The position numbers and the translations under genes are program-made. Below the pieces are notes generated by a model, which saw only the letters and a program-made list of their open reading frames with translations, was not told where the DNA came from and did no database searches. A DNA stretch of 32,000 nt from Promethearchaeota archaeon (GTDB lineage: Archaea > Asgardarchaeota > Lokiarchaeia > Sigyniarchaeales > Promethearchaeaceae): positions 120,001-152,000 of the forward strand of contig JAFGBS010000009.1 of the NCBI GenBank assembly GCA_016933055.1. The letters are read 5' to 3'. Positions 24,377 through 25,844 of the stretch are shown here, piece after piece; the stretch's first letter is position 1, and the number at the start of each line of letters is the position of its first letter.

Positions 24377-25579
24377 TTAAATTTTCATGGTTACCCATTC
24401 TCCGATTGGGGGTGTAACTTTTTTTGATTCTGCAAAAAAGTCCATACAAATGTTTTTAAAAGTCTGTGCGGCAAGAGGATGAAACATCATAGCTAAATCC
24501 AAGCCGCATAAAGCCATAGCAAGTGCTGTAGTGACTTCCCAAAGAGGACCCCGTTTAAAAATGTCTCCCCACTGAGGAGCTTTCTTATTACTCATCCAAG
24601 CCTCTCGTGCACCCCACGCGTTCGTTGTACCTGCGCTGGTTGGAAAGTTGAGCGTCTTGTCTCCTAGTAAACCAGAAATTCGATATCTTTGATAAATTGA
24701 GTAGGAATACTCTAATCCATAGCCTAAAGTAGCACATGTAGGATCGATTACAGTGTGGTTTCTCGGAAGACCCGCATCTAAAGCGTCTTTATTGAGTTTG
24801 ATCTGGTCATTAATATCCAACTGTGTCCACAGCAGCACATTTTGATCATACTTTAAAGAAAGCGGAATCACTTGTTCCCATGTCTCTTTATCTGCGCTAC
24901 TAAACATGGTGCGAGTGTTATCATTCGCTGCAATCTTTCCAAGGGCATCATATAGTTGGGGGTCCATTGTTTTATTTCCCGAACCTCCAATAATTACTGG
25001 GATTTTCACTGCATCGAGTATTTTTTCATACATCGCGGCGTCTTCTTTAATAGGACGATTCAATAAGAGGGGGTCGGTAGCTAAACAATGAAAGGTTAGC
25101 AAATCTGCTCCAAACTTTTCTGCACGCCTAGCCCATGCGACTGTATCATCATAAACATCTTTATAGATAGCTTTTATGGGTTTGGGAAAACTTCTTCCAT
25201 AATCAAACACATCTAATGATACTACGGGACGATGGGGGTTCTTTTCTCCAAAGAATGACAAGAATGGAGGAACTGTTTCTCCTCCTATAACCACTTTCGA
25301 CTTGTTTTTATTCCGATAAAACGTTACTTCCTCGATTTTCCCTTTGTATTCGTTTTTAATTTCAGGAAATTTGGTTTCAATCCATTCTGCTGGTTTTAAT
25401 TGTTGCTGCATGGATACTTGGGATATCATTTGTTGAGTGGATTGAGTAACTGATTTTACAATTCCCGGTAGAACAGAAAATTCTAAATGCTCCCCCATTA
25501 ACTCTAAATCTTTTAGGGTCACTTCATCTGTTTCTTCCAGCATTTTCAGAAGTTTTTCGGTAATCTTTTCGAAACTCAT
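24377..25579 (-). CDS. cdhD: Acetyl-CoA decarbonylase/synthase delta subunit (corrinoid Fe-S protein small subunit) with N-terminal extension
   Basis: VVIGGETVPPF, PVVSLDVFD, IIGGSGNKTMDP, IDPTCATLGYGLEYSYS, AWGAREAW, RGPLWE and MFHPLA. SD GAGGA lies upstream. Confidence 0.93.
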   Translation of the reverse strand: MSFEKITEKLLKMLEETDEVTLKDLELMGEHLEFSVLPGIVKSVTQSTQQMISQVSMQQQLKPAEWIETKFPEIKNEYKGKIEEVTFYRNKNKSKVVIGGETVPPFLSFFGEKNPHRPVVSLDVFDYGRSFPKPIKAIYKDVYDDTVAWARRAEKFGADLLTFHCLATDPLLLNRPIKEDAAMYEKILDAVKIPVIIGGSGNKTMDPQLYDALGKIAANDNTRTMFSSADKETWEQVIPLSLKYDQNVLLWTQLDINDQIKLNKDALDAGLPRNHTVIDPTCATLGYGLEYSYSIYQRYRISGLLGDKTLNFPTSAGTTNAWGAREAWMSNKKAPQWGDIFKRGPLWEVTTALAMALCGLDLAMMFHPLAAQTFKNICMDFFAESKKVTPPIGEWVTMKI

Positions 25580-25594
25580 GATGTTTTTCCTCGT

Positions 25595-25756
25595 CTATTT
25601 TTCTTTCGTAGATTTTTTAATTAAGGACTTAATCAGATTAGGATCTCCGACCAATAGTTCTAATTGCTCACTGGTTATCTCTACATCATTTAAAGTAATC
25701 TCATCGACTTTTTCGAGGAGTTTTTCTATCACTTCAGTAAAATCCTCAAGGGACAT
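25595..25756 (-). CDS. 53-aa micro-protein paralogous to the CdhD N-terminal module
   Basis: Not in the ORF track (under 60 aa). Translation: MSLEDFTEVIEKLLEKVDEITLNDVEITSEQLELLVGDPNLIKSLIKKSTKEK, stop TAG at 25597-25595. The first 36 aa align ungapped to CdhD residues 1-36 with 18 identities. Confidence 0.9.
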   Translation of the reverse strand: MSLEDFTEVIEKLLEKVDEITLNDVEITSEQLELLVGDPNLIKSLIKKSTKEK

Positions 25757-25778: not shown

Positions 25779-25798
25779 GATATAAAACTTTTTTCCCG
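25779..25798 (-). promoter_or_regulatory. BRE-TATA promoter for the micro-protein-cdhD unit (leaderless start)
   Basis: Minus strand CGGGAAAAAAG-TTTTATAT, with the TATA centre about 27 nt upstream of ATG 25756. Confidence 0.6.
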
Positions 25799-25844
25799 TT
25801 CTGCAAGAAAAAGTAGAAATTAATAGAGAAAAAAGTAAAAAAAA

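Follow-up and report, generated by a model that had tools for sequence, protein, structure and literature searches.

A conserved small gene directly upstream of cdhD in two Asgard lineages and its relation to the N-terminal module of CdhD

The cdhD locus and its small gene

The window, that is the whole stretch of 32,000 nucleotides that was analysed, comes from a 3.76-Mb Promethearchaeota (Loki-type Asgard) MAG. It carries cdhD, which encodes a subunit of ACDS, the core enzyme of the archaeal Wood-Ljungdahl pathway, and a small gene located directly upstream of it. The following features were assigned.

24377..25579, minus strand: cdhD, delta (small) subunit of the ACDS corrinoid iron-sulfur protein, 400 aa (PF03599, 155 bits)
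25430..25579, minus strand: parental N-terminal module in CdhD, residues 1-50 (alignment A4)
25580..25594, minus strand: spacer between the small gene and cdhD, 15 nt, with an SD-like GAGG at 25589-25592
25595..25756, minus strand: small-protein gene, ATG-started ORF of 53 aa plus stop
25780..25813, minus strand: conserved promoter block, about 30 of 34 positions identical in five lineages
25780-25787, minus strand: TATA-like TTTTATAT within the promoter block; the box ends 23 nt before the small-gene ATG
25788-25797, minus strand: BRE-like GGGAAAAAAG within the promoter block
25798-25813, minus strand: upstream invariant segment CTTTTTCTTGCAGAA, adjoining the BRE/TATA elements
25837..25844, minus strand: eight consecutive T immediately behind the stop codon of the upstream gene for an AMP-binding (acyl-CoA synthetase-like) protein

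The TAG stop of the small gene occupies positions 25595-25597 and the cdhD ATG positions 25577-25579, which confirms the gap of 15 nt noted earlier. The only delta subunit in the genome is encoded by this cdhD. The cdhE gene was located approximately 45 kb away on the same contig (C17), cdhB-cdhC on contig C6 and cdhA on contig C22; a complete ACDS is encoded, scattered over at least four places and not arranged in one cdh operon. Bacterial homologues with solved structures begin at CdhD residue 74, so residues 1-73 represent an archaeal N-terminal extension. The N-terminal module within it consists of an acidic helix and a segment of the pattern 'LK[DN]-x-x-[IL]-x-AE-x-L', and it is this part of which the small gene holds a copy.

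The small protein is composed of an acidic head (residues 1-39, net charge -10), which is homologous to CdhD 1-38, and a short Lys-rich tail (+4). Counted by hand, residues 1-36 of both proteins shared 18 of 36 identities in an ungapped alignment, as had been noted. With BLASTP the match was extended to CdhD 1-50 (23/52 identities, 35/52 positives, two one-residue gaps, E 9e-10); the similarity was significant, and the two proteins are in register starting with the initiator Met. At the DNA level, the small gene was 51-57% identical to the first 50 cdhD codons, with pS of about 0.8 and pN of 0.34-0.40. Because the DNA identity is this low and synonymous sites are saturated, the similarity is kept at the protein level, and the claim that no recent DNA duplication is involved holds.

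No Pfam family was found above threshold in the small protein. PF03599 gave no match; its Pfam model begins at approximately CdhD residue 92, and the N-terminal module therefore lies outside the domain. A profile of the small proteins matched CdhD N-termini in other families with 13-33 bits, always within residues 1-50. By these alignments, the small protein is classified as a paralogue of the CdhD N-terminal module and not as a member of the PF03599 domain family. DUF5100 (PF17029) reached at best 20.3 bits at a gathering cut-off of 27, and only over the final third of the model; sub-threshold matches to it were seen in 13 of 56 module sequences, and no DUF5100 match above the cut-off was obtained in the source genome or the control genomes. 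The sub-threshold matches of DUF5100 and RPAP1_N were set aside as compositional. Weak matches of 161-aa V4R-like proteins, encoded beside small GTPases, to the small protein (E 0.03-0.5) were judged to be due to chance.

A plus-strand frame of 66 aa overlaps the small gene. It is open in the source genome only and is interrupted by one or two stops in five related lineages, in agreement with its earlier dismissal as spurious. The small protein had also been described as hidden, which was not the case: it is already annotated, as a hypothetical protein, in public MAGs. Eighteen clusters of proteins of 52-66 aa, 77-100% identical to the small protein, are on record, and their named members carry the label 'hypothetical protein'. 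A literature search did not yield a description of this small-protein family.

Selection, promoter and transcription unit

Six related lineages of Promethearchaeota have the small ORF in the same position. When five lineages were compared in ten pairs, pS was 0.74-0.94, pN 0.08-0.17 and pN/pS 0.10-0.21, values that also cover the range of the first 50 cdhD codons. The frame of the small gene was the only one open in all lineages, the other frames being broken by stops in most of them, and 28 of the 53 positions of the protein were invariant. The small gene is a real protein-coding gene under purifying selection; the proposed selection at the protein level was borne out by the low pN/pS at saturated pS and by the orthologues in six lineages.

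In a genome of the same genus (G001), an ORF encoding a protein 73% identical to the small protein of the window was present in the same place, and the neighbouring genes matched those of the window (AMP-binding gene, small ORF, cdhD, convergent MFS gene). Three further contigs showed the order HypA-SRP19-x-AMP-binding-small ORF-cdhD-MFS. The order AMP-binding gene, small gene, cdhD and MFS gene was found in every contig examined, with a spacer of 10-15 nt before cdhD. Two metatranscriptome runs of the source study contained nearly no matching words and provided no usable cover of the locus.

Two side observations were made on locus L046. In comparison with the cdhD locus of G001 (L005), pS was 0.32 in the body of cdhD and approximately 0.8 in the small gene plus the first 50 cdhD codons, a difference that suggests a breakpoint of recombination close to the 5' end of cdhD. 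The reading frame of the L046 cdhD is also shifted by one base around codon 350, probably through an error of assembly.

The 34-nt promoter block is near-invariant despite saturated synonymous sites, whereas the stretch of 22-23 nt between the TATA-like box and the ATG varies among the lineages. Conservation of the block in five lineages supports the BRE-TATA originally assigned to the small gene. The CTTTTTCTTGCAGAA segment is conserved beyond the need of a core promoter and may be the binding site of a regulator. At the usual archaeal TATA-to-start spacing, transcription would start at or next to the ATG, so that the mRNA of the small gene and cdhD is probably leaderless.

The GAGG is located 9 nt before the cdhD ATG, so the predicted SD of cdhD is present. 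A purine-rich GGA, GAG or AGG stretch was found in the 10-15-nt spacer in all five compared lineages. The spacer before cdhD is too short for a separate promoter. The conserved BRE/TATA ahead of the small gene and the short spacer support the predicted two-gene operon, and translation of cdhD would be coupled to that of the small gene, judging from this arrangement. Oligo-T is a known termination signal of archaeal RNA polymerase. The run of 8 T is likely a terminator that parts the AMP-binding gene from the unit of the small gene and cdhD.

Occurrence in Asgard archaea and origin of the free copies

The CdhD N-terminal module is present across many Asgard families. Two profile scans covering 400 Asgard genomes revealed clear free copies in two of two genomes of the source genus, in five of seven Helarchaeota genomes, and nowhere else; Helarchaeota is the label of the NCBI records and denotes a second order in the same class as the source. 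The family of free copies was the top match of the 400-genome scan (E 1e-11 to 1e-25) and was located solely directly upstream of cdhD, and four more short frames gave weak matches to the profile (E 0.003-0.005). A set of 80 species-level Asgard cdhD loci, taken with flanks of 2.5 kb, contained a free copy in the same-genus MAG only. About 83 of 90 module-bearing Asgard genomes were without a free copy. Since most ACDS-bearing Asgard lineages are without a free copy, the complex does not depend on the small protein. The survey covered Asgard archaea, with methanogens and Bathyarchaeia outside it; the sole locus labelled 'Bathyarchaeota' (L126) comes from a genome that the Asgard set already contained. 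A search of 1.84 billion representatives with the profile A1 returned only its own cluster and one spurious repeat protein, and missed the Helarchaeota copies, being too insensitive at the length of the small protein. A word-based search with CdhD 1-60 gave one match only.

The gene order in Helarchaeota is cdhC, small ORF, cdhD and cdhE, contiguously. The small ORFs have 35-65 codons, and existing annotations list them as called genes too; one genome has an overlap (ATGA) between the stop of the small ORF and the start of cdhD. A conserved open frame upstream of cdhD, expected in related genomes by the original prediction, is present in this second lineage, and the finding is broader than first noted: two Asgard lineages carry genes of one small-protein family immediately ahead of cdhD. 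In alignment A7, which combines the members from both, the conserved core spans residues 1-35. Neither the third helix of the window's protein nor its Lys-rich tail is common to the family, and the two shortest Helarchaeota copies stop where the conserved core ends.

In the nearest lineages without the small ORF (CdhD 67-73% identical), cdhD is preceded by approximately 150 nt of stop-rich, AT-rich DNA and by a TATA-like element about 20-30 nt before its ATG. In the simplest history of the small gene, the first ~50 codons of cdhD were duplicated in tandem, after which the upstream copy would have kept the promoter and the start and the full-length copy would have become the second cistron. In a tree of 40 columns, a single clade of all small proteins was marginally rejected (AU p 0.04), and a recent in-lineage origin for the source genus was not rejected (p 0.084). 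The Helarchaeota copies grouped with the Helarchaeota CdhD modules, and the small protein of the source genus stood apart, on a long branch, from every CdhD module of its order. On this phylogeny two independent origins of the free copies are somewhat favoured, which, if true, would be an argument for an adaptive role.

Other irregularities were observed in Asgard cdh genes during the survey. Eleven of 104 Asgard cdhD loci, that of the window not being among them, are interrupted by a structured insert of 30-36 nt containing stop codons. In 10 of the 11 loci the insert lies inside the invariant DPTCATLGYG motif. It was found at cdhD HMM position ~277-279 in L086 (3329-3364), L068, L112, L113, L125, L128, L013 and L018, at position ~276 in L095 and L127, and at position ~233 in L122; its length is 36 nt in L086 and L068. 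The insert in L013 shifts the frame and thus cannot be read through. The hairpin of the insert shows three compensatory pairs and flanking exon-exon pairing, and the deduced cuts fall in opposite-strand bulges (relaxed BHB-like). The cdhD inserts are candidate mRNA mini-introns of the tRNA type, which would be spliced by an endonuclease. In four related genomes, cdhA is broken near residue 70-75 (L193 in G039, L195 in G033, L196 in G023 and L197 in G038), by an in-frame stop or a split into two frames at one place; these breaks are probably mini-inserts of the same kind.

In the neighbouring family f3, cdhD starts with ATT in ten loci (L006, L007, L010, L013, L020, L022, L027, L028, L030 and L032) and with ATA in L029, at the position occupied by ATG elsewhere. 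These codons are located 6 nt after a conserved SD-like AGTGA motif and directly after an in-frame TGA. As a result of the non-ATG starts, many CdhD entries in databases are 13 residues too short (383-384 aa).

Structure, candidate partners and proposed role of the module

The AF2 model of the small protein had a pLDDT of 76.5 overall and of 82-88 for residues 1-30, with a helix at residues 3-16, an extended stretch at 17-28, and helices at 29-36 and 39-51. In the monomer model of full-length CdhD, the N-terminal region had low pLDDT values of 49-60, as expected for a part that may fold on binding. A fold search of the 53-aa model against the PDB gave a best match with an E-value of only 4.8, and no usable match was obtained in the ESM Atlas. 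A complex prediction of the small protein with CdhD 1-75 resulted in a score of 0.01; it was run without controls and is evidence neither way.

Experimental work on the assembly of the approximately 2-MDa ACDS complex appeared only in 2026, and pointed to the N-terminal region of CdhD. In Methanosarcina acetivorans this region drives hexa- to octameric assembly of CoFeSP (PMC13370988, preprint, July 2026). The oligomerising Leu-zipper helix or coiled coil comprises residues 45-68, the tested fragment residues 43-88, and residues 1-43 are without an assigned function; AlphaFold2 applied to the terminal regions yielded nothing beyond the coiled coil, and the CdhD region is proposed to be bound by two disordered ends, the C-terminus of CdhC and the N-terminus of CdhA (PMC13370988). 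The scaffold function that had been suggested for the CdhD N-terminal extension agrees with this preprint. Judged by position only, the small protein would be equivalent to the first ~42 residues of M. acetivorans CdhD plus at most two helix turns. M. acetivorans CdhD 43-88 gave no significant sequence alignment with Asgard CdhD, and the transfer of that experiment to the Asgard protein consequently goes by position.

The CdhC tail was compared with the module. The last ~30 residues of CdhC are basic and highly conserved across the source order and Helarchaeota (L134-L153, L166-L171). They have the form GGFK-IILKNCKIHAESIIIKK-I-x-P-K-rich (source genome copy L034:2890-2970), and 'GGFK-I-I-L-K-N-C-K-I-H-A-E-S-I-I-I-K-K' is conserved across the order. 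The tail lies outside the Pfam domains, after an acidic or Pro/Gly-rich linker, and looks like a putative docking element. A profile-profile comparison of fused and free N-modules with CdhC tails revealed a common motif of 13 columns, i-x-L-K-N-v-x-I-x-A-E-x-L (score 20.6, P 1.2e-4). Column-shuffled tails scored 6.8 +/- 1.5 with a maximum of 12.5, and 0 of 200 reached 20.6; an earlier comparison without Helarchaeota rows had been weak. The hhalign probability for CdhC tail and module was 55%, homology and convergence being both possible. The tail resembles the small protein in the 13-residue motif i-x-L-K-N-x-x-I-x-A-E-x-i and in ending in a Lys run. It differs in net charge, which is +9 in the tail, -7 to -10 in the small-protein heads and -5 or -6 in the CdhD module, and in lacking an amphipathic acidic helix in front of the motif. 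Conservation was also seen at the N-terminus of CdhA, but this had no motif in common with the module or the CdhC tail (scores of about 9, within noise).

In genus g5 of the same family (L041, L042), a CdhD-like protein of 47-48% identity has a divergent, non-acidic N-module, and the sole CdhC relative is very distant (23-25% identity). The joint lack of a canonical CdhC and of the acidic CdhD pattern is a single and weak case of co-variation, and the CdhD-like protein may be a corrinoid protein working outside canonical ACDS.

The motif comparison favours the CdhC tail as the probable contact of the CdhD module and its free copy, and points to the CdhC C-terminal tail at least as much as to the CdhD N-terminus as partner of the small protein. 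Together with the M. acetivorans work (PMC13370988), it makes the retained module a candidate for protein-protein interaction. Judged by genomic linkage, the small protein is probably an undescribed accessory piece of ACDS.

The preferred reading, to which a probability of about 0.45 is given, is that the small protein acts in trans within ACDS as a free copy of the CdhD docking module and binds most likely at the CdhC tail. With one conserved promoter and a bicistronic mRNA, it would be made whenever CdhD is made. It keeps the amphipathic acidic helix and the subsequent h-x-L-K-[ND]-h-x-I-x-[AS]-E-x-L segment, retains no TIM barrel and almost nothing of the linker helix, and would bind whatever the CdhD N-module binds. 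The likeliest contact would be the strongly basic, conserved tail of CdhC (the acetyl-CoA synthase subunit), with the same motif and opposite charge. Once bound there, it could cap the tethers between ACS and the CoFeSP scaffold or raise their valency, and ACDS would be tuned in its stoichiometry or dynamics. Against this reading, the 13-residue motif could reflect a common third partner or similar structural needs, and constitutive co-expression with CdhD at a roughly fixed ratio would be odd for a pure competitor. A more far-reaching version, in which pairing of the acidic CdhD N-module with the basic CdhC tail tethers ACS and two lineages independently freed the acidic half as a sixth polypeptide, is considered doubtful; this co-translated polypeptide would set the number of ACS units tethered, and a primordial carbon-fixation machine would then be under the control of a prokaryotic microProtein.

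Alternatively, as originally proposed, the small protein may co-assemble with the CdhD N-terminal region; it would form mixed oligomers, as a spacer or a dominant-negative component setting the number of CoFeSP units on the central hub. Paralogues of self-associating modules commonly go on binding their parent, the window's protein retains the Pro hinge and about two turns of the next helix, and fixed co-expression with CdhD fits a stoichiometric structural partner. The hexamers to octamers of the M. acetivorans region point in the same direction; however, the oligomerising helix (residues 45-68; PMC13370988) follows the hinge, and the core of the small family ends before the equivalent position. 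Two Helarchaeota members end right before this helix, self-association of the 1-36 module is without a report, and the CdhD N-terminal region is of low confidence in the monomer model. Mixed oligomers are therefore held to be a tentative option, on the unlikely side.

Less probable is a function unrelated to ACDS, in which the small protein would merely share the transcript and bind another partner, or nucleic acid via its Lys-rich tail. Its strong divergence from the parent (pN 0.34-0.40), its long branch outside the CdhD modules of its order and the basic tail would be compatible with such a job. The strict adjacency to cdhD in two orders, which differ in the layout of the other cdh genes, argues against it, as does the tail itself, which is not conserved in the family and is of a type common in the AT-rich source genome.

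The ORF might also act in cis as a translated leader that feeds ribosomes to cdhD, the peptide being of little weight. This would suit the TATA box 22-23 nt from the ATG, the spacer of 10-15 nt, the ATGA overlap in one Helarchaeota genome, and the sister lineages without the ORF, in which cdhD follows ~20-30 nt behind a TATA-like element. Coupling requires no particular peptide, yet 28 of 53 positions are invariant at saturated synonymous change, the peptide still matches the CdhD module in its hydrophobic pattern, and a second order has a peptide like it; a mere leader is accordingly regarded as quite improbable. The view that the ORF arose by chance, or was left without function by a tandem duplication, for which the short length and the lack of a Pfam family above threshold could be put forward, is effectively refuted by the selection data (pN/pS 0.10-0.21 at saturated pS, an intact frame throughout where other frames are broken by stops), the conserved promoter and the Helarchaeota homologues.

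With regard to known systems, the closest is the ACDS of M. acetivorans. The small protein is homologous to the very N-terminus of the Asgard CdhD extension, which precedes the TIM barrel, is absent from bacterial AcsD and organises the 2-MDa complex in M. acetivorans (PMC13370988). It differs in being a separate polypeptide without a barrel, and the tested fragment 43-88 lies after the duplicated core. As a selected free copy, the small protein is a ready-made probe, and its target is very likely that of the first ~40 residues of CdhD; with the motif of the CdhC tail, the tethers that have been proposed can be put in terms of one concrete pairing. Small proteins are also known to bind large metabolic enzymes of archaea, for example MtrR of Methanosarcina mazei, likewise a protein of less than 70 aa on a central complex of C1 metabolism, the Mtr complex (PMC13370731). 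This likeness is an analogy only, the origin from a subunit being claimed for the ACDS small protein alone.

The eukaryotic microProteins (Id, LITTLE ZIPPER, miP1a/b) are likewise small single modules duplicated from a larger protein (PMC9638782, PMC4807768). The 53-aa small protein corresponds to such a single module, the N-terminal one of the 400-aa multi-domain CdhD, and by analogy would be expected to act post-translationally on the complex of its parent protein. Known microProteins are eukaryotic, act mostly on transcription factors and are usually regulated apart from their targets (PMC9638782, PMC4807768), whereas the small protein has an archaeal host and a metabolic mega-complex as its putative target, and is probably co-transcribed with its parent. 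If the preferred reading is true, it would be a clear prokaryotic microProtein, a regulator cut from its own target in the archaea closest to eukaryotes, which may have evolved twice.
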